A DNA stretch of 64,000 nucleotides from Narcine bancroftii (taxonomy: Eukaryota): the NCBI RefSeq assembly GCF_036971445.1, contig NC_091482.1, forward strand, positions 50,592,001 to 50,656,000, written 5' to 3'. Below, piece by piece: positions 9,461-63,166 of the stretch. The notes beneath the pieces are model-generated. The model was not told where the DNA came from and searched no databases. It saw nothing but the letters and a program-made list of their open reading frames with translations. The position numbers were made by a program, and so were the translations under genes. Numbering within the stretch: the stretch's first letter is position 1; every line of letters starts with the position of its first letter.

Positions 9461-9704
9461 GATTTATGCGGTTTCCATTCAAGGATCAGATAATCCCTCA
9501 TAATTGCCATTGGTGAAGGTGTCAAACCCTCATCTCCATTTGTCTTCAACATTGTTGTAAAATTGAGAAGGAAATGGTTATGTTAATTGATGGTTAATTT
9601 TGCTTTAAGTAAAATAGTCATTTATTCTGTTTGCTTATAAGTACAGTCCAATATATTTATGGAAGTGTAAGATAATATTGAAGCATTTTTTTTTTTTAAA
9701 ATAG

Positions 9705-10690
9705 ATGATTACCGACTTTGGGAAATTCCTAAGAGAAAGCCTAAACCACCCCAAGCTTACTGCCCTCCTACAGCACGGTTTGGGAATCCATCGACATTCC
9801 AAGATGACTATGGCCCCAAGGTATATTCACAGAGGGACAGTTTCAAGCCGCCTGATGTCCCTAAAATATCTGATATCCCCTTTGATGGTCTAACAAACCA
9901 TAAAATATCTTATGTAGCCCATCCAGTAGGGGAACGATATGTGAGACTACAGGAAGAATATAAACCAAATGACAAGCCTTTTGAAAGTCTCACCACTCAC
10001 CGTCGTGATTACACGGGAATGCATGGAGATCCCACAAAAAGTTTTAAACCTGAACAGGCAAAGATAGGATCAGATGCACCCTTTGATGGAAACTCAGAAT
10101 TTCATGATCGATACCAGGCATGGCCTGTTTCCTTGCCCTACATGCACAAACATCCAGATTACGTGCCACCAGATGGTTCAATGGACTTGAATACAACTTC
10201 CCACCTTGATTACATTGGACATAAAGTTAAGCCTCCTGTTCCATTTAGACCTGCAAGTGCAAGAAAGGTCCATGCTCCTTTTCAAGGAAGCACGACAATG
10301 AAAGATGACTTCAAGCAATGGGATATGAAGAAACAAACCATGATCAGGCGGGGTGAAGAAATAAAAGTACCGTATCCAAAATTTGATGATTTGACAACTT
10401 TTAAAGCAAATTATGTCCCTCATCCAATCAATCCACTGCAAAGTTTTAAACCATCGAACGTTCCTCGACTTAGCAAAACACCATTTGATGCTGGAACCTT
10501 GTATCGCACTGAGTATAAACCAAAGAGACTAGAAATATGTCCTGCAAGCTATTCTACTCCACCAGGCTTTGTGTATGACAGCACAGATGCACGTGGTCAT
10601 AAATTCTTCCACAAGATAACACCATCAGAAGAAAATCTGGTGGTGTCACATGAAATGCATTTTCCAAAAGAAGTGGCAGTAGTATCCTAA
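9705..10690 (+). CDS. SAXO2: SAXO2-like terminal coding exon
   Basis: Poly-T tract then aaatag|AT at 9704/9705. Reads (D)DYRLWEIP...FGNPSTFQDDY...LTTHRRDY...NTTSHLDY...FQGSTTMKDDF...EICPASYSTPPGFVYDSTDARGHKFFHKI...VS* in the same frame as ORF 9941-10690. EICPASY.PPG and GHKFF.KI resemble SAXO2 more than SAXO1 (recalled). Confidence 0.92.
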
Positions 10691-12740: not shown

Positions 12741-13321
12741 TATGGAGATATGCAATTCCACCACCAGGTCACCAGGGGTCATCCCGGTGACCTTGTATAT
12801 AAAGGAGTCCAGAGCTACAGTCGAGCCTTCCAGGTTCGTCTTGTAGAGAGACAAGACCTCTTAGTGTACATATTAGTTTATTCTTCTTTCTTTGGCTTGG
12901 CTTCGCGGACGAAGATTTATGGAGGGGTAATGTCCACATCAGCTGCAGGCTCGTTGGTGGCTGACAAGTCCGATGCGGGACAGGCAGACACAGTTGCAGC
13001 GGTTGCAGGGGAAAATTGGTGGGTTGGGGTTGGGTGTTGGGTTTTTCCTCCTTTGTCTTTTGTCAGTGAGGTGGGCTTTGCGGTCTTCTTCAAAGGAGGT
13101 TGCTGCCCGCCGAACTGTGAGGCGCCAAGATGCACGGTTTGAGGCGATATCAGCCCACTGGCGGTGGTCAATGTGGCAGGCACCAAGAGATTTCTTAAGG
13201 CAGTCCTTGTACCTCTTCTTTGGTGCTCCTCTGTCTTGGTGGCCAGTGGAGAGCTCGCCATATAATACGATCTTATTAAAGCTGTCATACTCGCACTGCT
13301 GGTGTGGTTATTGTCAGTACA
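12741..13321 (+). mobile_element. Short solo LTR split by an RTE insertion
   Basis: Flanked by 5-bp direct repeat ACTAG (12736-12740, 13322-13326); ends ...GTACA; TATA-like TATATAAA near 12796; ATTAAA signal at the RTE junction. Confidence 0.6.
12881..13274 (-). mobile_element. RTE LINE 3' fragment (AviRTE-like)
   Basis: Near-identical reverse complement of about 13955-14333, with a (GAA)n tail at 12881. Confidence 0.85.
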
Positions 13322-13873
13322 ACTAGTTTTGGCAAAGCCTCCTGGATTTCCCTATTGGACCGGTGAATCGTGCTGCGATTGACCAACAGATTTCAACGGA
13401 ACAAAACCTTGTTGTCCTATTGGAGGCTGCATACTCTGGAGTAAGGGACTCAAATTCAGTCTCCTCACCGCAAAGCACAAATTGAGTACGTCATTTACTT
13501 GCTAGGTCAAAGTTACCTGCTTGATTGGCATGCCCATCAACCTCATTTGATTTTCTTTGGACTTTTACAATCAATTTCCCAGTCTTTTCTTTTGTCTTTT
13601 TCACTATTTAGCACCATCACACCATAGATCTACAAACCAGGTTGTTACAAAGTAAACAAGATTTATTTTACAATGCTTGGAAAAAGCTGGGCTTCCACTT
13701 CCCACAAAGACATGGACAACAAAGGCATGGGCTGTGGAAGGCATGCATAATGGAAACGTACCTCAGTCACTGGCACAATTCTGGAGCTGTCTACCTGTCA
13801 GCACTATGGGGGGCTACTTCACCACCAAGTCCACAGCAGGGCAAAGTTCAGATTTATTGTCAGAGTACATACA

Positions 13874-14333
13874 AGATGCTGTCGATCCACGCTGATGAAG
13901 ATCAAACTGCGCTGGGTAGGTCACGTCTCCAGAATGGAGGACCATCGCCTTCCCAAGATCGTGTTATATGGCGAGCTCTCCACTGGCCACCGAGACAGAG
14001 GTGCACCAAAGAAGAGGTACAAGGACTGCCTAAAGAAAGCTCTTGGTGCCTGCCACATTGACCACTGCCAGTGGGCTGATCTCGCCTCCAACCGTGCATC
14101 TTGGCGCCTCACAGTTCGGCGGGCAGCAACCTCCTTTGAAGAAGACCGTAGAGCCCACCTCACTGTCAAAAGACAAAGGAGGAAAAACCCAACACCAAAC
14201 CCCAACCCACCAATTTTCCCTTGCAACCGTGTCTGCCTGTCCCGCATCGGACTTGTCAGCTATAAAGGAGCCTGCAGCTGACGTGGACATTACCCCTCCA
14301 TAAATCTTCGTCTGCAAAGCCAAGCCAAAGAAG
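13874..14333 (+). mobile_element. RTE LINE 3' fragment (AviRTE-like) with 7-bp TSD
   Basis: LRWVGHVSRMEDHRLPKIVLYGELSTGHRDRGAPKKRYKD...CLSRIGLVS RTE C-terminus. TSD ACATACA at 13867-13873 and 14334-14340. Inserted in a Rex1-type 3' tail (about 13845-14490). Confidence 0.88.
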
Positions 14334-14689: not shown

Positions 14690-15575
14690 TATAACCACTT
14701 ACAGCACAGAACAGGCCAGTTCGGCCCTACTAGTCCATGCTGTAGCAAATCCCCACCCTCCTAGTCCCACTGATCAGCACCCGGTCCATACCCCTCTAGT
14801 CTGTTAGGTCTGCTTTGTTCATGAATGAGTGAGACAAACACCAGGCTGAGTCGAAATTAGGGTTCTTTGTTCTTTATTACCGGATTGTAACACTTGCGAC
14901 TAAACATGTTAGTCGGAGAATGCATTCTGCCGTTATCAGCAAAATGGTGATTTTTTATACCCTTGGATATGTGCTTAGAACATCATCATATCATTACTTG
15001 TCCAATGACTAAAACTGTTGCTATCCTTTCCCTGCTAGCTTCCTGCCTCTCAATCCATCAATGTCTCTCTTATCTTGTAAGTACAAGGATGCATTCACAT
15101 CTTGTTACAGCCCTGTACATTCCCATCTCATGATGTTTTACCTAACAGGAGTACAAGGACACCTCCCCTTCTTGTTACTGCCCTGTACAGGGTAACTCCC
15201 TACACATTCCCATCTCATGATGTTTTACCTTACAAGTCCCCTCCTATCCATGTAAAGATCCAGTTTTTCCTTAAATGTAACCAATGATCCCGCCTCGACC
15301 ACGTCTGCCGGAAGCTCATTCCACATCCCCACCACCCTCTGCGTAAAGAAATTTCCCCTCATGTTCCCCTTATAATTTTCCCCCTTCAATCTTAAACCAT
15401 GTCCTCTAGTTTGAATCTCCCCCACTCTTAATTGAAAAAGCCCATCCACATTTACTCTGTCTGTCCCTTTTAAAATCTTAAACACCTCGATCAAGTCCCC
15501 TCTCAATCTTCTACGCTCCAGAGAAAAAAGCCCCAGTCTGCACAACCTTTCCCTGTAACTCAGACCCTGAAATCC
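14690..15575 (-). mobile_element. CR1 LINE 3' end interrupted by a solo LTR
   Basis: LGLFSLERRRLRGDLIEVFKILKG...TRGHGLRL...FFTQRVVGMWNELP, the CR1 ORF2 C-terminus; (GGTTATAT) tail near 14685. Confidence 0.9.
14802..15234 (-). mobile_element. Solo LTR (433 bp), copy A
   Basis: TG...CA termini; 4-bp TSD AGTC (14798-14801, 15235-15238); TATA and AATAAA on the minus strand; near-identical to 53422-53854. Confidence 0.9.
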
Positions 15576-15644
15576 CTGGATATATCCTGGATATGCACAT
15601 TAATAATGTTGAAACCAAAAAGATTATGAGATTGCAAAATTACC

Positions 15645-17370: not shown

Positions 17371-19979
17371 TCTATTCCTCCTACACTCCTTGAACAGCAG
17401 AGTGCAATCTTCCACTCCTGAACTACAGCCCTTTGAGATTCCACAACTCCACCACCAGCATTCTTCCCACTCTCTGCCCAGCAGCTAAATTCTGTAATTC
17501 TGATTCCTCCACAATAATGTTAGTGAATTTTCACCCCCACAATGCAAACCCATCTTCAACCCTAATTCGACGTGATGGACGTCTCAGCTTTGGGAGAAGA
17601 TGTATTAGCAGCACACATTTGTAAAAGAAAATGTGGAAAGCCTGTTTTAGGGCCAGGTCTCGAGTGAGTTTGATGGGCTGGAAAAACAACTGTATAAATC
17701 TTAGCTTTTGACTTCAGGGTATACTAAAATTTCCATTTTAAAGTCAGGGGATTGGAAATGTGTAAATTAGACAGATTGTTAAAAGGAAAATGGTGTCAGA
17801 ATATGCATGAAATTAACTATGATATGACATATTCAATGAAATAAATCTTTTCTAAATGCTGTAATTGGTTTAGACTTACCTGTGGGGCTCCAAAACTAGG
17901 CATATTAAATGAACTCCCCTCAGACCCGTTCGATCATTCTATAACCCATCATGATCTGCGGCTAAATTCTATATGCTGGTCTTTGCACCCGACCAATTTA
18001 ATAATTTACAATTAGCTCTCATTATCCAATGTAAAATGAACTATTTGTCCTACAGATTTTTTTTTAGAGTTTCAAGGCCTTACCTCTTCAAATGCAATTT
18101 TTAATGATCCATCACCTTCAGCTAATACTTCACTAATTGCCTTTGGATATGCACATTAATAATATATCTGCAGAGATCCCCCTATTGACAATTTCACCTT
18201 CTAACACAGAAGAATATATTATTTTCTTGTTTATTTCACACCATGAAGTAAATAAACCAAATTCCAAGGCAGATTTATCTTCATTTGATTGCACAAGTAC
18301 AACCTGACAAAACACCAGTCTTTGGCCCTCGGTGTGAAATGCGCCGACACACAACCAGACGTAACGCGCATATAGACAAATAATACACACGCAGGACAAG
18401 TAGTCAAAGATACAACTAGACTGCCCAGCGGGTTTCAGCAACCAATTGCCCACCACTTGATAATATCTATCAGAAACGCTGTCTGGGCAGGGTGAAGATG
18501 CCAATAATATCTCCTCCAAGCTATGGACTTTTTCCTCTTCTCCTATCCAGTCGGCGCTACAGGAGCCATTGCTCTCGAATCAGTGGGCTTAAGAAGGGCT
18601 TTTCTCTTGAGGCTGTGACCCTGTTGGACCTTGAATCACAGCTCTGAGTGGTACTCACATGGTACTCTCAGTACTTTTAGAATTGTTTGCTTGCTGTACG
18701 TTCTTACGTTTATTTGCATGTATTTGTATACAGCACTATTTTTTTTAAACCTCTGGTTGGATTCTAATTTGTATTTCATTGGCTTTGCATTTTACTGGGC
18801 TCAATGACAAGAAAGTTGAATCTAATCTAATCTAAGTAAACAAACATTTCATGAGAGACTAGGATGGTTTAGTAAGAGCAGTCCCTTTGGTCGTTCTGCA
18901 CAATATAATCATCAGAAATAAAAGGCACAAAACAAGGGCATACGTTTTGCACAAACTGCTTTGCACAAGATGGCATCGACATATCAGGTCACTTTAGCCT
19001 TTCTCAGGGACCATCACTGGATGTGTCTTATCTCGATGACACTGCTGGATCTCTTGAGATGAGACAGAGGGACTGGGGAATCAGAGATCTGCTCCTGTTA
19101 TGTGCCTTTTGTGGTCTTATTATTAATAATAATTAATAATCATATATTCCTCTTTGATGGCCTGATAATTGAGAATGTTAGAGTTTAATGATCAAAAATG
19201 TTCCCGTAGGAGAATGATGGATTATTTGCATTTTAAGTTATAAAGGTCCAATTAGGAATCACACTTAGGAATTCTTGCAAGTCTTTTAAATAGTATCATT
19301 TGTTCTGCAGCCAACCCTAGATGACTTTGGATGTACAAATTTTCATATTAAATTATTGGTATGAATTTGGATCATACAAATAAAACACTCGCCTTTCAAA
19401 TGACAAAAACATGCATCCTGACCAACCCACAAGAACAAAAATCTTCTCTACATTAGTGTGACAGCTGGACTACATTATCAAAGTGTAATAGGAAAGAAAA
19501 AAATGTTATTTATTTTTTTAAAAAATAGACCTTGTATGTTGTCAATTGAGCATGGAAGTGGTGATTCTCCAATTCCTTTAAAAAGGAAGAGACCATTGCA
19601 TTTTCGGCTGGGGTTGCAGGCTGTTACACTCCCATCCCCTATGAGCACCATCTTTCCGCCGGGATCACAGAATCATTTCTCTGAAGAAGAACTCGACCCA
19701 AGTTGTCACATTCGATTAGTATTGATTAGCCAGTCCAACATCTGGAGCAAGGAACGTTCTGCAAGGTATTTGACGAGATTCCATCAAAGCCTATTTGACA
19801 AAACCTGTCAAAAAGGCATGCATCCCAAGTAAATTCAGGCCCGAAACATCAGTTATCCTTTTCTTCCTATAGATGTTGCACAATCTGTTCAGTTTCTCCA
19901 GTACTTTTGTTGCACAATAAGTAAACTGGAATTTTTCTTCCAAGAGTAAAACAAAATGGATGAAGTATTTCCTGTAGGT

Positions 19980-21887
19980 CAGGGGTGTCAAACTCAAATT
20001 CACAGAGGGCCAAAATTAAAAACTTGGACTAAGTCGAGGGCCGAACTAAATATTTATTGAAAATTTTCAACAACATCTGCATGTTTTCTCTTCTTTCAAC
20101 ATATGTAATATTAAACTTTTTCTTATTAAAATAAATGTTTAATAATAGTTTAGGATAAACTCTTTCCAGAAGCATTAACAAATGAGAAATAAAATATTCA
20201 ATAAATAATATTTCTCTGTAGAGGATTTGTCAAATGTTGCTAGTGTGCTGTCGAATAGTAAAATCTGAGGGCTATTGAGAATGTGGGAGAATAACATGAT
20301 TCCTGAAACAATCAAATGGGTGACTGATTGTGGGCATGGACTCTAGCAGGGTTATTTGCCATGCCCTTTTTCCATTGGTACAGATATCCTTTGATTTACA
20401 CACTTTTCAAGTTTTATGCCTAATGAGCTTGTATCCAGGTTCAGGATCATTTTTAACCAGGAATATATTTATCACTGTGACATGAAACTACTGGAAGATC
20501 ATTTTATCCTGAGATTAAAGTTCATAATACTTACTCAGGCCTGTGTGCGGGAGGGCGGGGTTTGCGGGCGATTGGGTTGGACAACGACAGTGCGAGGGGC
20601 ATCGGTTCTCGCTGCAGGGCGGCATCTTGGCGGATCAGCGGCCCCGTCACCGTGAGTCGCGGGTCGGCCTGCGGCAGGGAGGGGGAGTGGGCAATGGTCC
20701 TGGCGAGGTCAGGCCCCCCCTGAGTTTCTGCCGGACCCCCCTTGACCTGCTGAGTTTCTCCCGGACCCCCCTTGACCTGCTGAGTTTCTCCCAGACCCCA
20801 ATTGACCTGCTGAGTTTCTCCCGGACCCCCTCCCCTTGACCTTCTGAGTTTCTCCCGAACCCCTCCCCCTTGACCTGCTGAGTTTCTCCCGGACCCCCTC
20901 CTCTTGACCTTCTGAGTTTCTCCCGGAACCCTCCCCCTTGATCTGATGAGTTTCTCCCGGACCCCCCTTGACCTGCTGAGTTTCTCCCGGACCCCCCTTG
21001 ACCTGCTGAGTTTCTCCCGGATCCCCTTCCCTTGACCTTCTGAGTTTCTCCCGGACCCCTCCCCCTTGAACTGCTGAGTTTCTCTCGGACCCCCCTTTGA
21101 CCTGCTGAGTTTCTCCTGGACCCCCCTTGACCTGCTGAGTTTCTCCCGGACCTCCCTTGACCTGCTGAGTTTCTCCCGGACCCCCCTTGACCTGCTGAGT
21201 TTCTCCCGGACCTCCCTTGACCTGCTGAGTTTCTCCCAGACCCCCCTTGACCTGCTGAGTTTCTCCCGGACCCCCTTTTCTTTCCGTGCCGGTGTCCCAG
21301 GACCTTTCCAGGGCAGTCTCCGCGCTCAGGACCGCGCTGGGATCCCGGTCAGTGGTAGAGGAGCAGGTGAGCGCGGCTAATCCCGATCCAGCCCACGCCA
21401 CTCTCGAGATTGGCAGGGGGTTCCACCCTACCTGCCCGACCAGCCTCGCTCTCCACGTGTATTCCGGGCACCCGCCGCTGGTCCGGTGGGAAGGCGCAGA
21501 GCGGTCGGCGGCCGGCGCCCCCATCGCCCGGCGGGGAGCCTTAATCTTCCCTCCGGCATCCCGACTCCATCTGCAGCTCCAAGAAACGATGTTCCACTGG
21601 GGTTCCCGGTGATGGGAAGCGGCCTTGGCTTTCCCTGACACCGGCCAGGCCGCGCTGCGGTGGGCGGGGGGACACGACAGCGTGTTTATAAAACCACCCA
21701 CCACTACTTTTCAAGGACCAGGATTTTTCTCTCTCTCACCCTGGGACACAGTGGTTACTGTGCATGCGCTATACTGGCGCGGCGGCCAGCGGGCCACCTC
21801 TAGTACATTTTTGATATGATCTTGCGGGTCAAATATAATTATATCGCGGGCCAAATTTGGCCCACGGGCCAGAGTTTGACATGTGTG
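19980..21887. mobile_element. Non-autonomous hAT element with captured cargo (Pack-TIR-like), copy 1
   Basis: Termini CAGGGGTGTCAAACTC ... GAGTTTGACATGTGTG; 8-bp TSD CTGTAGGT (19972-19979) / CTGCAGGT (21888-21895); ends shared with 55830-57006. Confidence 0.85.
20714..21275. repeat. Minisatellite, about 18 units of about 30-35 bp
   Basis: Consensus CCCCCCTTGACCTGCTGAGTTTCTCCCGGA in direct tandem with no unique spacers. Confidence 0.95.
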
Positions 21888-24800
21888 CTGCAGGTGTTAT
21901 TTCATCGTGGACTTTTTGGTTACAGTTTAAAGAGCATTTTAAAAAAGGCTTCATAGCTTTCAGTGATAAAAATAGTTGGGTGGCTATAGAACTAGCTAAA
22001 GCATCAAAAGCAGAATATTGTGCTAAATAGAGACAGATTTGTTCACAAGGTAGTGACCATCAAAGGATCTGTTTTCAGTCTTTTTGCTATGAGAAATAAA
22101 ATGGCAACATTTAATCAGAGCTGTTTCGTTACAAGGTGATCAGAAGACATTTGCTGGGAACTTGCTGAATAAATAATGTGCAATCCTGCTCTTTGAAGCT
22201 TTGGGGATGTTTCTTCTCAAAACAAAGTACTTCTTTTCTGTCTCTTTTTGCCCTTTCTCAATCCAATCTCTCACCTGCACTGTTCTGCACCCATTTTGAT
22301 TCAAATTCTCCTCTTTTCCTCAATCTTTAAATCTCTGTGATGTCATTGATTATTACCATTCCAGCCTTTTATGAGCTTACTGTTTCAGCTATGTGTACTG
22401 AGAAATGGTTTCTGAGTTGAAGAATGAGGAAAGGTCATTCATGAGGGATTCCAAGAAATGGCCTGGAGAGAAATAAAAACATTCAGGAGGAGGCCATTTG
22501 GTCCCTCAAGCCTGCTGTGCCATTCAATACATTTAAGCCAATAGTTCTCAACCATTTTTTCCCCACTTGAAGTAATCCCCTACTAACCACAGAACACCTA
22601 TGGCATCCTTTTATTTTTAATCCCATATCCTTGATTCCCTTAATATACCACAAACTATCAAGCATCTATCTGCTCCAGCCAATTCTGATCCACTAACATA
22701 GACCTAAATGAACTAATAAAGCTGGAATGTGAAATCCCGAGTGGAGCTTTCTTTGAAGAAATGTGAGACGATTTAAAATAAAATAGATTAAAGAATCTTC
22801 ATCATCAGCTGGGTGCAATTGTCATGGGCAGTAAGAGAAAATAAAGAATGATTGAACGCAATTGTTAATCTCCCCTTCAAAGCATCCAATCAATGGGCCC
22901 TGATTTGGAGCCAATGGTACCGTAAATTTAAGACGTCTTTCATCTGTATTGCATCACTTTTGGTTACCTTACTCCACAGTGTCGAGAGTAAACATCTATA
23001 GAAATGATGAATTGAAAAAAAACACACCATAAGAGTAGATTGAAAATAGAAGTGAGTTATTTGTACATTTACACATCTTGTTCACATTTCCAAACTATGA
23101 GGTAAGATATTGTTTCATCTTTTCAAAACTGATGAAGCTGCTAAATGAGTTTTGCGACTTCAGAAAATAAAAAGGAGAAAGGATTATTTGAATTGGATGA
23201 TACTAAATAAAAATTTGTCTTAACTTTTTTTATCTTGGAGAAAATCAGAAAATAAATGTGGGGTATAAAAAAAAGAAAAATATCCTTTTAATGGGGTAAC
23301 TTCTGGGAACAAAATATTGAACACATCTATCATACCAGCATCAATAACTACAATAAGCTCCAAGCAGTATATTTTATAAATCATATTCATATTGTTTGCT
23401 AAGACACATGTTATATATTTGACTTTTTCTATGCACTTTTGACCCTTTGCCATCATTCTTTGGTTAAGGAAGTTCTGAAGCTCACAGGGTTAAGAAAGCA
23501 ACTGTAGTAAAGTGACAAATGTCAGCCTTCCCGAAGGTGCATCGCAAACAAAAATCCAGTGATCTTTGCAGATATGAACCGCTGTGAGTTCATGCCGTTT
23601 CTGGCCTACAACAGTGTGATGTAATTATTTTGGCCGAGAAGCCAATCATGGTGAAGAATTCTCCCAGCAAGAAAGGTCAAGAGTACAACATTTAACTGGT
23701 TTCTTAATGCAGTGTGTTAAATAAAGGTTGGGATATCCATAGTAAATTATGGTTAATGTTGAAATCAAGAATTGGTTTTCGTTGAGTGATGCAGTTGTTA
23801 TATTGGGGAATTATAATACACACATTGAAATTGCGTTTAAGGGCCAAACTATGGGTTTGTGTGTCATTATGTAATCATAGTTCATTTAACAAGGCTAAAT
23901 ATTTCAGTTTTTTTAAATCATGGGAATCGATAAAGGGTTACTGTTTCGTAATCAGCAGAAGGCAACAATATGCCATCTTACCCATAAACAGAAAATTATT
24001 GACAACATGCTAGCTTTTGCAATTAAAAACGTGGAAAAATGCAGGTGCTTGAAATGGTCAAGTCACCATTCTGTGACTTTGTTCGCTGCATTTAAACCAA
24101 CTTTAACAATCTTGAATGCCCCTGAACTTCAGGAACATTGAGAAAATCTCAACTGCCTTGCGGTCGGTCAAAGATTTTTAGGGCAGGGCTGATTCTAACC
24201 TATCCACTTCATCAGAATACAGAGGGTTCTGGTGCTGATTGGGTCCAGGAGACTGAAGGCCAGCAATTTCAACCTTGCAAATCTCAAGCAGGCATGTGCA
24301 AAATAATTAGGAGCGCAAGTGGACAAATGTGACGAATGGGATCTAAATGATCTAACTGGGGGATAAATCCATTGGAGTGATAAGTTAAGTGAATGAAGTG
24401 ACCTCTATCATTATTAAAGTGTCCGACAAACTGCCATTACGTTTCACATCCAGCAGGGGTGCGGTGCTGCGGCACCTCCATGTCGCTGTTTTGGGTGAGC
24501 TCCAGCACCTAAAAAATTAGCACTGCACCCTCCGACTTCTAGTGGAGCCACAGTGAGCATCATGGGTAATATCGTAGCACATCTACGGATTTCATTTGAT
24601 TAATTAAAAAATATATTAAAACCTGTCCTTACAGTTACTGTTTGATGACACAGGCAATATCAGAATGTCTCTTTCTTTGCACAACAAGATTTGGTGAAGC
24701 AGCGGCAGTAAGGTTCCATGAGGCAATGGAAAGCAACTTCCAATGACAGACAAGACTTAGCAGTCACATGGTCCTGAGTAACCAATTCTAGCTACTTACT

Positions 24801-26289
24801 CTTCCACACCTGACATCAGTAAAATGTAGACAACGTGGTTGATACACACTAATAATGACTCCAAAAGCTGAGTGAGGAACGATGGGCTTCAATACAACTC
24901 CGTGTGCTCAAATGAGGGGTTTATAGCCGGGTCACAGGTGGAGGGGTTACAGGGGATTGAGTCATCAGTGGGCGGGCCAGCAACTTATATAGAACAGTAT
25001 ATCACCATATTGGTCAAAAAAAGCCAATGTCATTACCCTATGTTTCTAAAATATTTTATGGATTTCAGTTATAAAACATGTTGATCTAAGATGTATATGA
25101 TTCATTTAGTGGACGTGTAAGTCGTTTCATGGTTATCGCTCCTGGGGGAAAAGGAGGTGAGAGGGCATTTTGAAGGCTGGCAAGAATCAGCAAAGTCCAG
25201 GGTCAGGTGCCACTTGCTGTGCTGTCATTGGTTAGTTGGTAAATGGGCACACCTTTGCACATGTGGTGCTTGACTTCAGCAGTAGCACTAGAGGGAGCTG
25301 ATGGGCAGAAGGATACAGTCTACAAACTAGTTTGACTTGTGCTGCTTGGAAAGTGGAAGGGCCAGGATGCGTAATGTTTTGCTATCTGAAAACCACAGTT
25401 GGAGATGTATAACATAAACACTGAAGAGGGGTAATGTTTGTTCATCTTTGTTCAATGTTTGTACATATGCATCATATCTTAGTGAAGTAGCTTTTTTTAG
25501 ATTCACCTGGATAAGAAAATCAGATTAGGGTTTCAAGCTTGGGTTGAATGGTTTCTTGGAGATTCAATCACATCCAGCCTCTCTCTCAAAGAATAGCTAA
25601 TATTTACATGGTTGGTGCCAGTGAAATCATATCTAAATGATTTCATGCTAAGGAAATCCCATCCAGCACCAATCACTGACAGGGTTACATCATATTGAAC
25701 TAGCGCCAAGAGAAAGGCACCTTAATGAGAGCCAACGCATGGGAAACTGTAAACCAGTGTTCAAATAACGTACCTTAATTTCTTTCAATTTCCAGAGGTT
25801 TTGCTCTCGGTTATTCTTGATGTTAATCTTGGGTGCAACCAAGTTCTACTTGCTTCTAAAGACTTGTTCGTTCTCCTCAGTTAAACTATTTCTATTTCCA
25901 ATAATTCCGCTGAACAAAGTAACAAAGGGAGCTGTATTTGGTCTTTTTTTGGTAAAATAATTTGTTGATTGACCAGTTTCTGGTGGGGATATTTTACCTA
26001 TAGCATCAGAAAGCCAAATAATCTGATGCAATAAATACCCATAATTTTTAAAACAATAAATTTTCTTCAAGTAACTCTGAAAGCAAAGCGACTGGTAGTG
26101 AGCAGGTGTTATTCTCGGGTGCTGTGGAAGGAGCAGATTGAGAGCGTCTACGAAAATGAATGGGGCATGAGCTACAATGTTGATGCCACATGAGGAATGA
26201 AGGCAATGTATTGATTTGAAATGCCTTAGAAATGTGTGATAACGTTGCAAAAAAGAGTCTGCAACATGGTGTTAATTTAATTAATTTTA

Positions 26290-26505
26290 ATTAAAAAAAA
26301 ATTTTGGTAACAGGCCCTTTTGGCGCCCATGCCACTCAATTACACCTAATTGACCTGCAACCCCCAGTACGTTTTGAACGGTGGGAGGCAACCGGAGCAC
26401 CTGGTGGAAACCCACGGAGACACGGGGCGAACGTACAAACTCCTTACAGACAGCGCAGGAACCGAACCCTAGTCCTAATCACTGGCTCGGTAATAGCATG
26501 GCGTG
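26290..26505 (-). mobile_element. V-SINE
   Basis: V-domain and tail as in the other copies; further decayed copies at about 26630-26885 (-) and 27660-27930 (+). Confidence 0.7.
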
Positions 26506-27239
26506 CTGCCCTTGAACTTATCCATTGTTTATTTTATCAGAGGTGGAAAGGAGAAAGCAGCCAACCCTTTAGCAAAACAATTTGTCATTGAAATGAGGTT
26601 GCCTATATTAATTTTAGTAGTTTGATTGTCTTGGAGATACAGCATGGATAACGATCCTTCAGGTCTCTGAGTTCGTGCCAAACACCCATTTATATCAATC
26701 CGATATTAATCTAATTTTTTATTCTCCCCATATTTTTAATCAACTTCTCCCAGATTCTGACAGTCATCTCCACACCAGGGGCAATTTACAATAGACAACC
26801 AACCTAGATAATTCAAGGATGGGGGAAATCAGCATACCGAATGAAACCCCCAAGGTCCCAAAGAGAACATGCAAACTCCACCCTTGGTTTTGAGTTATGT
26901 GGTGTATTCTGTCCTTAGTGTGTGTTTCGTCTACACGCTTTATACAGATAGCGAACATTATGCGGAGTAATTATTCAGAATCAACCAGTAACTGCTGACG
27001 TGGAGCAGATGTTTCATCAAAGTACATGATGTGTCATAGTGGCTGAATCGATAAGCCGCATGAAACTTCCCTTCCCCTTCTATCTGAGCCCCTTTTCTTC
27101 ACTCTTTTAACACTGAGATGCAGGCATTAACAGATCTATACCAATGCAAAGATAGGCATCTTGTAAAGAGTAACAACTCATACCAGAGAAATTCTTCTAA
27201 ATCATAAGGACATGAGATATTGGTGGTTAAAAGATCACT

Positions 27240-27245
27240 TTTATT
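27240..27245 (-). promoter_or_regulatory. Candidate distal poly(A) signal of the ADAMTSL3-like gene
   Basis: AATAAA on the minus strand ending a U-rich UTR-like tract. Would imply a 3'UTR of about 5.5 kb; nearer AATAAA sites also exist (e.g. about 30205, 32230). Confidence 0.3.
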
Positions 27246-30012
27246 AAACTTCAGTTGAACAAAAAAAACCACACAAACTGGATTACAAAGGAAGCACAAA
27301 TATTGTTTCCATGATTATATATCAATACAAATGTGAGATAATTGTTGTTTTGAAAGCCTAAAACAAAGTTTTACAAAATATATGAATATTCAATGTCTCT
27401 GCATTTACAGCTCTAAGGCTATGAACCAATTTTGGAAACAGTCTGTATAACCCCAAGTTGCTCTGTATAACATCAGATGGGTCCAAACGTTTGTGAGCCT
27501 TATCCGAGTATTTGCATCATATACAAAGTGAGTAACTACACTCTGAATTATGGAAGGTCCTGTATGTAAAGTTGCAAGGTGGTGTGGCAGCTCACTCTTT
27601 TGGACAAGAATATGAAGCTCGAACCTTCTGTTCTGCATATGACCCCGAGACACTTGCACAAGGTTGGGTAGCGGATCGAACAGAGCTGCTTCACATCCTC
27701 AATGACCCAACTTCAATCCTGACCTCTGATGCTACCTGTTCGCCATGATTGCTCTGGGCCCTCCAGTTTCCTACCCCCACCCCCATCCCCTCAGCAAGTC
27801 TGTGAGTGGCAGCATCTGGGGGAGTTGAAAGGCGATTAAAATGGGATTAAGTAAAGAACGGTGTTAAATGGAGCACTGATGGTCAGCACAAACTCAATGA
27901 GCTGAAAGGCCTGTCTCCATGTTTATTTACTCTATTATAATTGCGCACAAAACCCTTTCCCTCACAACCTACCATTGGAGAGCAGAGGAAGACCAGTTGG
28001 AAAGTAGATTGTGGGGAGGAGAAGTGTTTGGTCACTGTAGGGAAAAAAATGATGAAGGTTGGGGTAAAGGAGGGGCTGTCTGACAATTAGCAAAGCCAAG
28101 GTGTAGTGGGGAGGGGGGGGGGGAGAATGAGATCCACGGGGCCAAGGTTACATCAGCAGGGATGGGTTTGGAGGCAAGAAGAAAAGAGGAGATGCAAAGA
28201 ATCTGACTGAGGAAGCTCAATGTCTTATACTTTCCAGGAAGAGTTGAAGTGCAGCCAGGTTTTGGGAAAGATTCACTTGTGCAATGCCTGAACATAGCAT
28301 TAGATGAGAGAATTTCTAGCCCAGTGTAAGTAGTAATGGACAGGGTTTCATTAAAAAATATGGACACAGAGCAATAACAAATTGGGAATGAGAGCTGAGC
28401 CAAGAGCTAGAAAGGAAAGTGGTCCAAAGGTAGATTGTATTGCGTGATTTGTTCTGGCACCCAACAAGGGAAAATGAATAAATACATTACTGGTTTGTTA
28501 TGTGACATTCCAAAAATTCAACTAGGCATTTCCTTGCAGGACTAATATAATTTCCAACCTAAATTATGTAATTTCTCAAAGTACAGCAGAAGAAATTAGT
28601 CCGTATAGCCCTGATAGAAATCTAGATTTGTAACTCCTGGGCCAACTAGTCTTTGTAGTTACTGAAACTTTGCTCACTCTTATTCCCAGGAACATCAACT
28701 GCACCTCCACCTGTTAAATCTTCCCCCTCCTCCAGTCACCCCCCCCCCCCACTTAGTTCATCCTTCTAACCAATCCAAGTACAGACATATTCCCCACTAT
28801 CACTTTCAACTTCCCTCCCACTTAACAAAGGACTTTTACATAATTGCTGTCTTAGGCATCTCTCTCATTCCCTTTCCCTTAGTTCTTGCACTGATCTCCA
28901 ACAACCGATCTCACACTTGTCTATGCATACAATCATCAACCCTTCCCAGGCCCACGTCTCTCACTTCCTCAGTTTTGGTTCCATCTTTTTGTCACTGATA
29001 AAAAGCTATAAAGCTTTAAGTGGTTCTGCTATTCTGATTGATCCTTTGTCAAACCAATTGTTGGTTAATCCAATGAGAACTCATTAGAACCAGGGGCATA
29101 TATTTTGTGAGCAAAATTCTCTCAGTGAAGTCAATACAGCTGTTAAAAGTGGAACAAAGGAAGGGGTAGGGGGTAGTTTTGGGAAGTTCTTCAAATGAGC
29201 TCATCAGAAGATCAGATAGACTCTCATGGTAAGAAGAACAAGCAAAAAGGAAATGTAGCCAGGAAAACACAGCAGAAGAATATCTATGTTCTAAGTAATA
29301 TCCTTTCTCAGTCAAAGGTTTTGGAGAGTTAATAGAGAAGAGAGAACATTCCTATGTAAGAAATTGAGACCAAATAAAATGTTTATATTCTGATTTGGGA
29401 TTTTTGCCTCACTGAAATATAAACCCTCAGAAATGCAGAAATCTACCAGATAGACCAATGCATCAAGGACCAGGTTGATAGGAGTTGGTGTGCCTAATTT
29501 TCAAGGCCTACTGGCTATGCAGAGCCCATGGGTAGCACTTTAGATACGTCTTACATTTAAACCCTAACCCAGGGAGAGCTTCATTACCAAGTTACGTGCA
29601 TTTCTATGTCTGGAAAAAAAAGACAATTTTGATAAGTGCTTAACATAGTTACTAGCATTTTAACTTTAAATAGGAAGTGAAAAGTAACTTCGAAAAGAAG
29701 CTTTGGTAGTAAATAAGTCCCAGCAAAAATACTCTTTATAACACACAATGTACAGTATTCAGTATTGCACTTCATAACAGAAAATAAATATGTACAGGTA
29801 ATATGTTACAATTTTTTTTGTTTAATTTATGGACAACCTTTTGCAAAAGGACAAGACCCATCAATTCTTTGGAGAATGTAAAATCATCTTCTTCTGGGAA
29901 AAGACCAACTTAAAACAGCTGTATTCAGAAACATAACTGGAGGACTTGGAAATGCACAAATGTGAATCAATGTTAAATGTTTACCACTGCCTATAATACT
30001 GTTACCCTCAAT

Positions 30013-30123
30013 AAGCCCTATTGCTGAACACCTAAAAGCCCTATTGCTGAACACCTAAAAGCCCTATTGCTGAACACCTAAAAGCCCTATTGCTGAACAC
30101 CTAAAAGCCCTATTGCTGAACAC
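30013..30123. repeat. Perfect 23-bp tandem repeat, about 4.8 copies
   Basis: AAGCCCTATTGCTGAACACCTAA repeated without mismatches. Confidence 0.95.
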
Positions 30124-32705
30124 AAATAATTATTTATCAACTGAGTTTCAGCAAAATTATTGTACTTGTCTAATTTATATTGTTCAAATTAAATTTAATA
30201 CACAATTATTAGTGACCATACGTTTACTAGATTAGTTTATATTTTTTGCATATTTCCTCTAAGTTTATTTATTTTAGTAAACTGGCAGCAAAATGATTTC
30301 TTACATTCACTCTTATTTCATCTTTTTTTCTTCTTCTTTATCCCTTCAGTAAAGGGAAGATGATTTTGAAATTTGCTGTGTTGTGATGCCATATTGTACT
30401 CACGAAACAAAATTAAAATACTGCAGTGTATTTTGATGCATTGTCTATTGTTCCTGTCAAGAAAGAACTCAAGGATACTTTGAGTTATAAAGAAAATAAA
30501 ATATAAGGTTGGACTCATTATTTAAACACAATGAATTTCTTGTAAGATGCAGAGTGCTGGTTATTGCAGCAATATTACACTAGCTGTTCTGTACTTTTAA
30601 AACATTTACAGAACTATTCAGAGCCGGTCTGTACTTTGCCAACATATTTTTTGCTGCTATTTATTTTAAAATTTGCTTTCCACATTTGATTTTCTGATTA
30701 TGAATATATTCTGTCATCTTCTTTGCAGTCAAAAATGAATTTTAATAAACCTCAGCAGGGCTATACATTAATTAATGTTTCTGGGAAACACATGGACCAG
30801 TAAAGGTTAGTTTGAAATACAAAACATGAAGTAATATTCCATTAATGACATCAGTTTACTCAGATCTATGCTCCGACACAGATTGGCAACATGTACTGCG
30901 AAGATGAATGTTGATCTACACCGACTTCCCTGTACGATAAGTCTCTGAAATTTACTGGAGTGGGTGGAGGAAGTATGTGTGCAAACATACCAGCTGAAGG
31001 GTAACCACATTAGGAAAGAAAGATCGGAGTCACTTGAGTATATCTGATTCACCAGTGGAGGAACTGTGCTTGGAAGCACATCATATAATGAATTGTTCCC
31101 TTGGCTTCAGGAGAATGAGAAACCCTTTGAGAATAAAATTAGTTGGAATTGAATCATATAAAAAATGTAAGGACTATATGCCTGTTATGTTCACACATTA
31201 TAAATAAGGGAAATCTGAGCTTTATTTTGAGAGTCCATTACTCATCAAGTTGTTGTAAGAACTGAGGGGGAAAAAGTTTCAAATGCACATTCAAGGTTTA
31301 AAATGACAAATTTAGCAGGAAAATATGCTTTCTTTCCAGGTGACCTTAATGAGACTCTCAAGGAAATGCCTGTGTTCAATTGATTCACGAAACTGTACTT
31401 GAGTGCTTTTGCAAAAGTTGAACATTTGATTTTGGTTTTTTTTATGGGGGGGTGGAATTCAATCAATGAAATCAAATTCATTTTTTATCTGTTGTTTTTG
31501 CAAGAATTCTACACTGAAAATGTCAGATATATGGGCAATGCCACATTCAAAAGTTACTTTGACCTTTGATTTTTTTTTTAAAAAGAGCTGACCCTCAACT
31601 TCCACATTCTGATTCTAACCTGTTTAAATCCTGAAAATGATATGCAAATACAAAGGCGAGGCATTGATTCTCAGCTGCAATTTTAGTTGAAAACTGAAAG
31701 GTCAACAATTAGCAGTAAACCTGAGGATAGAGATTCTCCAGAGGCAGAAATGTTTTGCATTTATTTGAATATTTCCTTCTCTATTTTTGTGCAATGCAAA
31801 ATGTACTCACCATTAATTCATACGATTAAATTTGTGATCATTTTCTTAACAGTGGTAATTTAATTCTTTATCTTAAAGGGTCTTTTTGAGTCAAGAAATA
31901 AACATTGTTATCATGGGTGTTGCAAATGGAGAAAGGTTCCTATGTGACCATATTAAAAACGTAATGTGGCAGCTCAAACTAAAGAGAATTGGTGAGATTA
32001 TCTGTTAAATATTTTCCCTCAAGCATAATTTACCTCTGACTTTTTGTCTCTTTACAATCAAGAACAATTCGATGCTTTCCCTTTGCTAACACTTGACGGC
32101 AGTGCAGGCTGCGTTGGTAACAGCTAATTCACTGATCGGATTTCATTCAAAGGTGGGATTCACATTGCTAATAGGTCTTCCTTAAAGTAGCTATCCAAGG
32201 TAAAAAAAAAATGTGAACCACAAAATACTTTATTCCCATGTTCATTTTCATCCACAGGTCGAACAAGTCTGCAAGATCAGACGTAATTTGAAGTAACGAG
32301 AAAGGATAAACACTCTTGCCAGTAGCCCAACCCCCCACCCCACCCCCTTAGTTGGAAAGCTTTTCCTTGCCTTCACTAAAAAACCCACCTGAAAATGTTT
32401 GTTCTCTTGGTGGCAGTGTTAATTCACATGATACAATCTAAATCCTGCGCGTTGAAGAATACATGGGCAGAACAAGTCCATAGTAGAGTTGAGCAGTTCT
32501 TCCCCCAAAGGATCAGCTGCCTGCATATTTGACTAAAATAATAAACAGCAAGGAAACCTTTGGACCAGCAGATTTACAGCACAATTGAAATATTTTCCCC
32601 AAGTTCATCTTAGATCAGATTCTACTGCATTCAGTTAATCTCCAGAGTTCTCCATAAATCCATTCACAGTCTTAATACTCCAGCAAACCAGTGGCATCTT
32701 ATCAG

Positions 32706-32821
32706 TTAGAGATTTCTGCAGGAATCGCAGCACCTGTGTTTGTAGGTGTTCAAGTGGCACAGCATCAGGCGTTTCACCAGTCCACAGTAGCGCATTGTGT
32801 CCATGCATTCTCCATCAGAAG
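32706..32821 (-). CDS. ADAMTSL3: ADAMTSL3-like terminal exon (PLAC domain)
   Basis: Minus strand ttccag|CT; encodes (T)SDGECMDTMRYCGLVKRLMLCHLNTYKHRCCDSCRNL*, a canonical PLAC Cys pattern. TAA stop at 32708-32706. Confidence 0.92.
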
Positions 32822-33042
32822 CTGGAAGCAACACATCCAAATCTAAATAACTGACACGTCATCGGGATGAGGTGAAGAAAACAAAAACTTCATTCACTTT
32901 TTCCATTTGCCACTTACTTATCGCAAAACTGTAATGAGATCCCAGCATACCAGACAAAAGCTAAATTCTTCCAGCACAAGGTTTTTTTGCTTGTCGTGCA
33001 ACATATTTTTTTATTTTTGACCAAAAGTGGAAATGTACTTAC

Positions 33043-33257
33043 TGTCACAAGAAGTTAGATTGCAATGTTGCCATGTGACTGGCCGCCTCTTCCATCCACA
33101 AAACTGATCCGCCACAACTTTGTTGTTTTTGTTATGGATACAAGCTACTTGTCGAGACTGGAAACCACTTCCACATGTGGCTGCACACTGTCTCCAAGGC
33201 CTTGTTCTCCAATGCACATTACACCTCTCTGATTTACATCGTCTTGCAGAAGGAGAT
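33043..33257 (-). CDS. ADAMTSL3: ADAMTSL3-like exon (last TSP1 repeat)
   Basis: Minus strand ccacag|A...GACA|gtaagt, 215 nt. Encodes SPSARRCKSERCNVHWRTRPWRQCAATCGSGFQSRQVACIHNKNNKVVADQFCGWKRRPVTWQHCNLTSCD. Confidence 0.92.
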
Positions 33258-33279
33258 CTGTGGATTGCAAACATTATTA

Positions 33280-33983
33280 CTGTAGAAACCCTGGTATCCG
33301 GAATTCAAGTGGCAGCCCCAAGCAACTGGCAAAAAGAAAATCCAAGAAAATAAATTTAACATTTTTAAATAAGTAATAATAAAAAAAGATTTTAAAAAAA
33401 CCGTTAGCTTAAAATTGTAAACGTAAATGTTCTCTGAAGTAACGTGTAAACCTTTGGTGAAGATGGGAGCAAATATTCGGCCCAGCGGAGCGCCTGGGTC
33501 GTGCCTTGCTCATAGCGGCTGTTTGAATAAAGTTGTGTGAAGCAATTGTGTTGCCCAGAATGAAGAACTGGTTGATGCTGCTTGTTGCAGTGTGGGCTCT
33601 CTTAAAGTGTCCTCTTATCCCTGTTTAGTAATTGTGGCCCTGGTCAGAAGTTTTATCTATAAACTTGGGGGAGGGATGGTTAATTATCTTTTATGTTATT
33701 GTTCATCTTTCAGGAGGCTGTGTGGAGGGGGAGGAACCTGCAGATGGAGTGACGGTTAAATGTTTTCAAGGAATATGACTGAAAACAAAGTAAAATGCTT
33801 TAAGGTTCATATATTTATGTAAGTGAAGCTTGTTCAGTGTAAGTACAATATTGTACTTTTGTCTTTTAAACTATTCTTAATACATATGTATGGGTTAGGC
33901 ATTGTAAGTCTCAAGAAACTAGAAAACATACTTATCCAGCATCCACCAATCCCTGTAGGTTCTGGATACCAGGAGTTTTATTG
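33280..33983. mobile_element. Tigger/pogo-type non-autonomous DNA transposon
   Basis: TA|CTGTAGAAACCCTGGTATCCGG ... TGGATACCAGGAGTTTTATTG|TA inverted termini with TA TSD; same family as 54298-54506. Confidence 0.7.
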
Positions 33984-34799
33984 TATAATTTAGAGCAGCT
34001 GAGGATGGGCAGCTTGAATAGATTTGTCCTTTGTGAGGTGTACATAGTGGTGTAACTAAACAGCAGCATATATTGCAGAACATTCCTCACCCTTGAAGAC
34101 ATTTACTTCCATGGTGAAAATAATTTGTCTTGTTTAGTTGAGTTAATGAGTTACGGACATACACATTGTACAGTGTACACATGCACTGAAATTCTTACTT
34201 GTTGCAGCCAAACAGTTATATGGTAAAAGAGACAATTATATGGTAATTTAATACAATAGCATGTATTAAATTAAAAAGAGACAATCAATTAAAATAAAAC
34301 AGATAATAAATATCCACAGCCACTACTGTCCAAGGAGAGAAGTGGTGTTCCAGTGGTGCAGATGACCCTTTTCGTGGTGTTGGAGTATTTTATGATTAAT
34401 GTAGTCAAAGGAGGATCAATAGCCTGATGGTCAATGGAAGTTAAAAAAAAACTATTCATGAAAGCAAGAGACATTGTAGCCAAAGGTAGCAGTGAGAAGA
34501 GATTGTGACTAGGGTTATGGTCTTGATTGCCTTTATGAGGCAGTATTGAACTTGTCTATGTTTGCTACTTCTGTGATCCGGGCCACCTGAATTGCTGAAC
34601 CAGGCAGTAATGCAACCAGTCAGTATACAGTAGATAACAACAGTCCACCTGTGGATAGGAGTGTTCGACAACATGCCAAATCTCCTCTGATTTCTTTAAA
34701 TGAAGGAGGCCAAGATCAAAAACTCTGATCTAAAGTTCCATAAGTTCAAACGAAAAAAAAATGTATTGATTTACTTGTTCACGGTAAATTTGTGGACCA

Positions 34800-35412
34800 G
34801 ATACTGACTGCCATCATAGACACACAACATCTCCTCACTTGTCAGGAAGGTACAATTGCGACTATACTTCCTGAGAAGACTATCAGTTACCATCATGTCA
34901 ACCTTCTACAGGAGCCCTACTGAGAGTGTCCTGCCTGGTTGCATCACAGTGTGGCATGGTGGAAAATGATTGGAGGCCAATTCACAGGACCATAAAAGTG
35001 GCAGAGAGTTTCACTAGACTCTCCCTTCCACCCCCCCCACCCCCCACCAATGTGATCTGCCTGGATCGTTGCCTGAACAAGGCACACAAAGTTGTTGAGG
35101 ACCCCTTTCACCCCACGCACAGCGCCTTTCAGCCACTCCCATCGGGAATATCAACACCAGTACCATCAGGCTGAAAAATAGCTCCTTCCCACAGTCAGTG
35201 AGAATGATGAACGATCAAAGGAAGTGCTCACACTGACCATCTGAGAGTATCACAGTTACAAAACAGCATATATTTATTTATGAATACTTGTCCTGCATGT
35301 GTATTGTTTATCCATATGTGGGTAATGACTGCTTGTAGGTCTGCATGTTTTGACAGGAGAACTGCTTTTGTCGGGTTGTACTTATGCAATCAGATGATAT
35401 ATAAACTTGACT
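34800..35412 (+). mobile_element. Rex1-type LINE 3' fragment
   Basis: IHRTIKVAE...VVEDPFHPTHSAFQPLPSG motif and AAACTTGACTT tail. A second, antisense Rex1 fragment lies at about 34130-34690. Confidence 0.7.
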
Positions 35413-35790
35413 TTAAAACAGTCTGACCTCACCAAGGATCAAACAGGTGCTAGACACTTCCTATCAATATTATCGGAATATTTTATCCCTATAATTAGTT
35501 ATTTACAGAATATAATTTGCAAATCTTTTGTGCTTTAGTTTCTACCAAATTCCAGATTAGATATCATTAACTTCTTGATATTCATTGTACAAGTTAAAAG
35601 AAGTTAGTTCTGGTAATTTGAAACTGCTGTTGGTCAAGCTCATATTATATCAGCATTTTTGCTTGTTGAATTTTAATGCTGAAGTTTTCATTTTCAATTA
35701 TTCCCTGCTTTTCGAACGTAATTAACAATGTTGTCACAACTGTTATTATGTGGAAAATTGCCACAGATTGCAATGATGTTCCCATAATAC

Positions 35791-35900
35791 CTCTCTGTTT
35801 TCATGCAAGAGGACCTTGCAGCTGACGTTCCATTTGGATAGCGACATACAACTTGGCGGTGCTGGACAGCAATGCCGTGACCCACACAACGGCCAGAACA
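35791..35900 (-). CDS. ADAMTSL3: ADAMTSL3-like exon (TSP1 repeat)
   Basis: Minus strand tttgacag|TGT...GAGAG|gtatt, 110 nt. Encodes CSGRCVGHGIAVQHRQVVCRYPNGTSAARSSCMKTE(R). Confidence 0.9.
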
Positions 35901-36147
35901 CTGTCAAACAAACGAGTAAAAAAAAAAGTTGCCAGGATTTAAAAAATGGTCATAGACACATTTGATTCCAAATTACAAAAACTCTATAAAATTGGTACTA
36001 GCACATCAAATGCAAATCCAGAAATCTTGAAAATCATCTATAAGCTTTATTCTTAAAATGTGTGTTTTGGATGTGTTTGGAAAGAGATTTATTGCTCAAG
36101 GGAATAGCCACACTTAAGGATCCAAGTATGGCAGCCTATGAAATATT

Positions 36148-36640
36148 GAACATAGAACACTGCAGCACATTACAGGCCCTTCAACTGTCGATGCTGTGCT
36201 GACCTATATATTCGTACCAAAATAATTCAAGAAATCTACACCCTTCCTACCTCATGACCCGATAATTTTCTTCATCCATGTGCCTGTTTAAGAGTCCCTT
36301 AAATGCCCCTCATGTTTCAGCCTCCACCACCATCCATGGCAACTCCCTGTGTAAAAAGATCCTTACCCCTGACGTCTCCCCTAAACGTTTCTCCCTTCAC
36401 TTTGTTAAGACGCCCTCTGGTGTTTGCTACTCCCACCCTGGGAAAAAGGTGCTGGCTGGGTACCTTATCTATGCCTCTCTATGAAGTCACCTCTTATTCT
36501 TCTAGGCTTCAAAGAGAAAAGTCCCCGCTCTGCTAACCTTGCCTCATAAGACTTCATTTCCAATCCAGGCAACATCCTGGTGAATCTGCTCTCCAAGACC
36601 TCCCGCCTCCTTCCTATAATGTGGCGACCGGGAGTGAATG
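36148..36640 (-). mobile_element. CR1 LINE 3' fragment
   Basis: Antisense CR1 motifs (GAACATAGAACA tail, CAGCCTCCACCACC, AATCCAGGCAACATCCTGGTGAATCT). Confidence 0.7.
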
Positions 36641-41400: not shown

Positions 41401-42072
41401 TTTGGTCAGCTGAAAGATCAAGTTTGGTCACAGAACATCAGGTTGGCCATCGTGGCAAGGTAGACAGGGCCATTGTCATTATTGGCCTTGCTCTATGGAT
41501 GTGAGATGTGGTGCCCATGCCAGTTTGACCAACTGCATCAGCGTCACCTACGTTCTCTGATGAAGATCACCTGGTAAGACAAGATCTCCAATATTGAGGT
41601 CCTTTCTCGAGCTGGAATGCCAACTGTTTCAACCTTGGTGATGTCAGTCCATCAGCACTGGGCAGGACACGTTGTCAGAATGCCTGACGGAAGACCTCTT
41701 GTACAGCCAACTGTCCAGTGGTAGCCAAAAATGAGGAGGCTGGCGCCTACGGTACAAGGACATTCTGCACAGGAGCCTCAAGAAAGCTGACATGGAAGGA
41801 TCTAGCTCAAGAACGCTCGCAGTGGAGGGCTGCCATGAGAAAAAGGTGTGGACGTTGCTGAGGAAAAACCTCAAAGAGGTGACAGAGGAAAGGCATAGAA
41901 GAGCCATAACAGAGCTTCTACCCCTGTTGCCCCTCCAGGCCTGCCAAGTATACGGCAAGCAGGGCCTGTCAAGGATCGGCCTGTACAGCCACTTCAGGAT
42001 GTACATATCAAACCACACAAACTGACTGAAAGGAACCATTATCATTCTACATGATGGAGTGCCAGAATAAGA
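38418..42072 (+). mobile_element. Near full-length, decayed RTE (BovB-like) LINE
   Basis: Long 5'UTR; APE motifs VNVYAPT and LLLLGDFNAWVG; RT motifs QCDFRTGFSTVDMIF, FVDLTKPFD, GVKQGCVL and QFADD; C-terminal CQVYG..GLSRIGLYSH; many stops and frameshifts. Degenerate TSD CTTAAGTAATATGTG / CTTAAGATGATATGTG. Confidence 0.9.
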
Positions 42073-62850: not shown

Positions 62851-63166
62851 TCCCCCCCCTTATGAACCCACTGTAGTGGTATCGTAGTGAATTTGTAAAT
62901 GGTGTTGACATCCGAGCCACACCGTCATAGGTTTATAGCGAGTAGAGCAGGGAGTGAAGGACCTTTCATCAGAGGGCAACCACTGATCCCTCTCTACCAT
63001 TTATTTCAAGAATCAACCTCACGAATATCCTGGACCAACTTCAGAACTAACACTCCATATTATAACTCACCAATGTGGTAGACTCTGAACTCCCTCTTTA
63101 CTTCAGAGGCAATGAGGGATGGACATAAAAAGTGCTGAGATTCCATGAACAAATAAAATTTAAGTA

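Follow-up and report, generated by a model that had tools for sequence, protein, structure and literature searches.

Can a vertebrate cut-and-paste transposon carry the start of a host gene, and if so, was that start picked up once, at this place? The question is raised by an element at positions 19980-21887 of the 64-kb stretch of DNA from the electric ray Narcine bancroftii that was analysed (hereafter the window; Table 1). An earlier note, made from the letters of the window, had read it as a Pack-hAT element holding one captured 5' portion of a host gene, delimited at 20623-21792 and lying in the same sense as read-through from SAXO2. Of that proposal, the putative non-autonomous hAT and the host-promoter-like interior stand, a sister interior turns out to be exonised in annotated gene models, and the single local piece with its limits falls. 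Our preferred reading, at a probability of about 0.6, is that the element belongs to a massively amplified, modular Pack-hAT family donating exons, the modules of which probably go back to the 5' regions of host genes.

Table 1. Positions of the element and its modules, of its second copy and of the flanking genes in the 64-kb window (strand "." where none applies).
Feature	Positions	Strand	Basis or remark
Frame with last SAXO2 coding exon and stop	9671-10690	+	context
Left 8-bp TSD CTGTAGGT, central TA	19972-19979	.	end comparison
Left arm with imperfect TIR (19980-19995)	19980-20119	.	98.6% against copy 2
AT-rich interior, absent from copy 2, three AATAAA on +	20120-20539	.	copy comparison
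Promoter/first-exon-like module	20540-20716	+	motif order, GC/CpG rise
30-bp minisatellite, 17.7 copies, 88% matches	20720-21276	.	
Exon-like module	21277-21600	+	pyrimidine tract, AG 21299-21300, 66-nt block, GTGAGC 21367, CpG-rich tail
51-bp module	21601-21651	.	also in a sister form of greater abundance, there with other sequence to either side
Further module	21652-21757	.	part matched by a contig of single-copy depth
Common right arm with TIR (21872-21887)	21758-21887	.	at least five other interiors adjoin it
Right TSD CTGCAGGT	21888-21895	.	end comparison
Last coding exons of ADAMTSL-type gene	32706-33304	-	TSP1_ADAMTS by Pfam
Copy 2, same ends, other interior	55830-57006	.	between minus-strand ADAMTSL-type exons
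Exon cassette of copy 2	56545-56749	+	acceptor AG 56543-56544; donors GT 56719 (174 nt) and 56750 (205 nt)

The element measures 1,908 bp and a second copy in the window (55830-57006, copy 2) 1,177 bp. As the earlier note had stated, the element is bounded by TIRs and an 8-bp TSD, and the same was found at copy 2: 12 of the 16 terminal bases pair in both, and seven of eight bases agree between the two sides of each duplication (CTGTAGGT and CTGCAGGT for the element, ATGAAATG and ATCAAATG for copy 2). The common arms reported there were also recovered, with 98.6% identity over the first 140 bp and 76.8%, in a gapped alignment, over the last 99 bp. The 24-bp motif at 20599-20622 recurs at 56903-56926 in copy 2 (23 of 24 bases identical), where it is directly joined to GCCACCTCTA; in the element the two were said to stand 1.17 kb apart, and the distance measured is 1,170 bp. 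Both edges of this stretch read GCGG (20619-20622 and 21789-21792), a microhomology that would fit a deletion as well as an insertion. The ends and TSDs of both copies cannot be put down to chance.

Helitrons are not known to have TIRs or a TSD, whereas both are present here. Mutator ends and the TSD length of plant Pack-MULEs likewise differ from those of hATs. Pack-MULEs have long Mutator-type TIRs and a TSD of 9-10 bp (PMC8277862), unlike the 16-bp imperfect TIR and 8-bp TSD of this element. The hAT features described in PMC3517528 are an 8-bp TSD, here with seven of eight bases agreeing at both copies, short TIRs of 5-27 bp, here 16 bp and imperfect, and a length below 4 kb. Contigs of the sequencing runs described below fix the end of the element at 21887, since 92 of them run past this base into unlike flanks; the consensus of these flanks, GTCTAGAG (agreement 0.44), and the left TSD both match the Buster target consensus nnnTAnnn given in the same source, and the central TA is absent from the TSD of copy 2. 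From its ends and size, the element is classed as a putative non-autonomous hAT. Rfam gave no match anywhere in the 64-kb window, the TIR pattern none in viral contigs and the cargo pattern none in prokaryote genomes.

The element is intergenic, 9.3 kb past the stop of SAXO2 and 10.8 kb past that of an ADAMTSL-type gene, of which we take 32706-33304, judged by eye, to hold the terminal cysteine domain. In its last exon, the SAXO gene has 100% identity to N. bancroftii SAXO2. Both annotated isoforms stop at 10690, and 13 AATAAA lie on the plus strand between this stop and the first donor of the element, two facts that speak against the proposed SAXO2 read-through. Other mobile DNA was seen in the window. 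Two inverted 433-bp copies (14802-15234 and 53422-53854), 98% identical, start with TG, end with CA and have differing 4-bp duplications; they are to all appearances recent solo LTRs. An RTE-like LINE has left two neighbouring 3' fragments on opposite strands (12939-13307 and 13751-14281), with more LINE remains at 15225-15599, 39305-41500 and 62250-63949, integrase-like remains, assigned by eye, at 52487-52828 and, at 63391-63660 on the minus strand, a short frame that by eye resembles a Tigger/CENP-B helix-turn-helix remnant and for which Pfam gave no match.

The stretch 20623-21792 is GC- and CpG-rich, as had been observed (GC 0.63 and CpG o/e 0.61, where the window as a whole has 0.41 and 0.37), and its CpG o/e is 0.83-0.85 outside the minisatellite. 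Six of the seven CpG-island-like 300-bp segments in the 64 kb fall in the two copies. GC and CpG climb at about 20540, not at 20623, and from there a GC-box pattern (20551-20560), a reversed CCAAT (20571), the 24-bp motif, a YY1-like site (20620-20628) and a donor-like GTGAGT (20652) follow each other, succeeded by GC-rich DNA that resembles the start of an intron. A GC box and a CCAAT ahead of a strict donor occurred in 22 of 5,000 dinucleotide shuffles, and GC box, CCAAT, YY1-like site and donor in this order in 0 of 5,000, with patterns that had been picked post hoc. We infer that the promoter-like module is the source from which the 24-bp motif has been left over. At the border between AT-rich and GC-rich DNA, a perfect GTAAGT donor stands on the minus strand (20529-20534), the layout that a bidirectional promoter with a first exon to either side would have. 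The common right arm contains, at 21760-21769, what is presumably an NRF1-like site, the sole one in the window.

The splice signals previously listed are all present: after the GTGAGT at 20652 come the minisatellite, a pyrimidine tract, AG at 21299-21300, the 66-nt block (21301-21366, reading DLSRAVSALRTALGSRSVVEEQ) and GTGAGC at 21367. Acceptor/donor pairs of the same kind are common by chance (15 on the plus and 17 on the minus strand of the window), and in the block third-position GC does not stand out (p=0.57). A protein relative, the check proposed for the block, did not emerge: the one frame searched, that holding the block, had no match in PDB, Pfam or the atlas, and 1.84 billion representatives yielded no more than five repeat proteins, 25-26% identical, which were rejected as chance. 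One contig of a run guessed to be RNA crosses the 21366 donor unspliced, and no loose contig end at 21301 or 21366 is found among the 21 listed of 136, in contigs that drop rare forms; for four runs the RNA nature is a guess, which says nothing about expression.

The abundance of the element was approached through the contigs of four sequencing runs, aligned over 21241-22500. In run X1, a contig of depth 7.95 spans 635 bp from the element end into the flank with 0 differences, which assigns the run to the same species and shows the insertion to be present in it; the flank is uncovered in runs X5 and X10, of which the latter (three contigs) may be carried-over DNA, and barely covered in X9. Summed contig depth, which is not copy number and is taken as an order of magnitude only, is 7.95-12.7 in the flank, 23,895-41,155 in 10 of the 11 cargo bins, 118,928 in the other one and 414,000-717,000 over the right arm. 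This copy is 3.3% away from the family majority, and at the 17 sites where it differs from it, depth is, by the same rough measure, 1,315-4,736 times that of the flank. Of 486 31-mers, 178 (0.37) avoid these private differences, which agrees with the 0.36 of sampled words contained in the best runs and thus indicates that the runs contain words of the family, not those of this copy. The cargo is a high-copy repeat, and both measures contradict the local event that had been assumed. The private differences are not enriched in CpG decay (5 of 17, p=0.35), which was rejected as a sign of methylation.

The same contigs, in the 21 of 136 loose ends that are listed, tell how the interior is put together. 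In all four runs (10 contigs), the sequence entering 21601 ends in 20696-20716 plus nine bases, so that there is a sister form from which the minisatellite and the high-copy exon-like module are missing together; since depth rises over 21601-21651 (bin 21619-21660), this form is the more abundant one. Contigs of X5 and X10 also exit at 21651 into other sequence. Four other interiors meet the right arm at 21755-21768, and the join of copy 2 at 21789 is present in X5, which makes 21755-21792 part of the common arm and not of the cargo. Sister forms switch modules at 20716/21601, 21651, 21755-21768 and 21789, and the interiors beside the same arms are numerous and unrelated. The interior is a mosaic of modules exchanged among sister forms. 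Where one captured piece had been seen, at least three modules have been recombined, and neither limit of the cargo holds, as promoter-like DNA begins at about 20540 and 21755-21792 is an arm common to several interiors. Some of the other interiors end, before 21755-21758, in sequence with ZNF143-, CCAAT- and CRE-like promoter motifs, hinting at further captured promoters.

Evidence that such interiors reach host genes comes from copy 2. With its frame 56547-56759, 10 of 673 candidates gave a score; these ten are without exception from N. bancroftii and 78-90% identical, and the cassette peptide is contained in NCBI models, which are computed annotations, of IFT81, MMP21-like, PAGR1, CDK15, TBC1D22A and one uncharacterized gene, six unrelated genes spread over four contigs. 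In 25 of 27 isoforms, a biased set made up of matches and cluster members, the block starts in phase 1 at the acceptor 56543-56544, and its other border is donor 56719, donor 56750 or the next stop; two of the three MMP21-like isoforms skip it. The cassette had no match outside Narcine among the 673 candidates and is an insertion in each gene bearing it, and none of the six genes is its parent. TBC1D22A was considered as parent and rejected, both solved relatives, TBC1D22A and B, being without the cassette; weak similarities of the frame, at E 0.037 to WDR11 and at E 0.66 to eL32, were rejected as well. Over the first 27 codons, third-position GC is 0.89 (p=0.023, post hoc). For the cassette of copy 2, chimeric transcription is predicted by the models of six genes, and for the 66-nt block contigs and frame search gave none. 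In the 16 of 16 TBC1D22A isoforms seen, a 58-residue insert lies within the TBC domain. In the window, the cassette is antisense to the ADAMTSL-type gene.

A mechanism for such a family can be proposed. A transposase supplied in trans would cut and paste the element, and a segment running from promoter through first exon to intron start (about 20540-20716 plus 21601-21651) could have been taken in where the cut was made, by gap repair or template switching; subsequent switches may have brought the minisatellite and the exon-like block and exchanged the part beside the right arm. The modules would have been captured into ancestral copies and amplified afterwards, the join of copy 2 may have arisen through a deletion at the GCGG microhomology, and copies landing in sense orientation in introns could lend splice sites to host genes. 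The present, intergenic copy is most likely inert. As to sources, a 2,017-bp contig of single-copy depth matches 21633-21733 with 12 differences and three gaps, its other 1.9 kb lying off the stretch, and is a candidate parent or a broken copy; two contigs of X9 that reach 21278 from non-minisatellite sequence are a further lead on origin. A bolder version, to which we would give slightly less than an even chance, is that a Pack-hAT serially captured CpG-island promoters and exons of several host genes, shuffled them, multiplied to copy numbers in the thousands or tens of thousands and now supplies a shared alternative exon to unrelated proteins (IFT81, TBC1D22A, CDK15, PAGR1, MMP21-like), which would amount to shuffling on the Pack-MULE scale by a vertebrate TIR element.

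The explanation that competes best is that nothing was captured and that the interior is transposon-native, its modules stemming from promoter and untranslated-exon sequence that belonged to an autonomous hAT or to nested elements and was reshuffled among copies by abortive gap repair. Every module tested is many-copy, and protein and contig searches gave no parent; transposon promoters also bear GC boxes and splice sites, which counts toward this explanation. The interiors beside the same arms are, however, many and unrelated, which is less easily reconciled with it. In addition, the first 68 bp of the arm match, at 84%, one end of a decayed element that is present in two metagenome contigs (L001 and L002), in which the related end (CAGGGGTGTC in L001) lies downstream of broken frames that by eye resemble a hAT transposase, although searches of Pfam, PDB, the atlas and proteins gave nothing for them. 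If the assignment by eye is right, the plus-strand modules are antisense to the transposase, which would be mildly against a native promoter. The interior of this copy has no match in either contig (best E 0.17, outside the arm), which also argues against native modules, though the relative is distant. The decayed element (150-3024 in L001) lies in otherwise unrelated metagenome sequence and contains nested insertions, one with an 8-bp duplication. We regard a transposon-native origin as rather unlikely.

Much less credible is a single local capture of a continuous host 5' fragment (20623-21792), into an element that would otherwise resemble copy 2, spliced through SAXO2 read-through. Comparison with copy 2 does place the limits just there, GCGG standing at either one, and donor and acceptor lie on the SAXO2 strand; but depth and word share indicate many copies, promoter-like DNA begins left of 20623, both SAXO2 models stop at 10690 with the 13 AATAAA still ahead of the first donor, and the junctions inside the supposed cargo largely refute it. 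That the modules are GC-rich non-genic sequence with a minisatellite expanded inside the element, their motifs and splice sites fortuitous, is similarly improbable, for although acceptor/donor pairs are chance-common, the 66-nt block is without coding signal and the motif tests were post hoc, the CpG o/e outside the minisatellite, the ordered promoter motifs (in 0-22 of 5,000 shuffles) and the third-position GC of the copy 2 cassette, itself a post hoc result, all stand against it.

Amplified Pack-hAT modules of host origin, the reading that we prefer, can be set beside known systems. A Pack-TIR is defined by a parental copy of at least 90% identity that is free of the flanking TE, and the pipeline of Tan et al. 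2021 demands a unique parent match (PMC8277862). The present interior lies between both ends of one TIR element and within the 100-5,000 bp of a Pack-TIR; in place of a single unrearranged capture with a unique best match, it is many-copy and mosaic. Of the 370 animal Pack-TIRs found in that study, 208 are in hATs and only 4 (1.4%) are multicopy; Pack-hAT-N8_XT of the frog carries the CAPSL 5' UTR in three copies, with its parent identified (PMC8277862). The Narcine family resembles them in its hAT ends, its non-coding, gene-5'-like interior, a possible breakpoint microhomology at the join and chimeras with host genes, which here are predicted by models. It differs from them, whose parents are identified (PMC8277862), in that its interior is amplified about a thousand-fold or more, is mosaic and is a candidate capture.

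Amplification of this order is known from the bat Helibat Helitrons, which have taken up promoters, 5' UTRs, first exons and introns and exist in 4,690-5,505 copies (Thomas et al. 2014, PMC4224331). They, too, are amplified vertebrate mobile DNA that donates splice sites and exons (in gene models here), but they are rolling-circle elements with parents mapped to human genes, unlike the cut-and-paste Narcine element with its TIRs and 8-bp TSD. Plant Pack-MULEs, Pack-hATs and Pack-TYPE elements share with it the non-autonomous TIR structure, shuffled interiors and exons merged into host transcripts (PMC8903248, PMC5861414), and maize Pack-hAT clusters exceed 100 copies; unlike the Narcine family, they are found in plant genomes and have known parents (PMC8903248). 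In its 8-bp TSD, short imperfect TIRs starting with CAG, length below 4 kb and central TA in the target, the family is like Mar, a Buster/Charlie-type element, which is, in contrast to the many GC-rich interiors with splice sites seen here, short and AT-rich with one interior (PMC3517528). A literature search, subscription papers and repeat databases aside, returned no report of a Narcine hAT family or of Pack-hATs in rays, and the passages of Narcine papers that were searched mention the species in passing only.

In animals, TIR transposons are known to capture genes, but such events are rare and mostly single-copy. Beyond what was first read from this locus, the interiors are modular and high-copy, and one of them is exonised in six gene models. 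Should the modules be transposon-native, the finding would reduce to a modular hAT family of the ordinary kind that has an exonising cassette. By amplifying promoter- and exon-like modules at least a thousand-fold, a vertebrate family would scatter CpG islands and splice cassettes genome-wide, and its many copies in one species offer material on capture, on module exchange and on any favouring of GC-rich 5' pieces. For users of the annotation it matters that a peptide borne by a transposon is present in at least six protein models of N. bancroftii.
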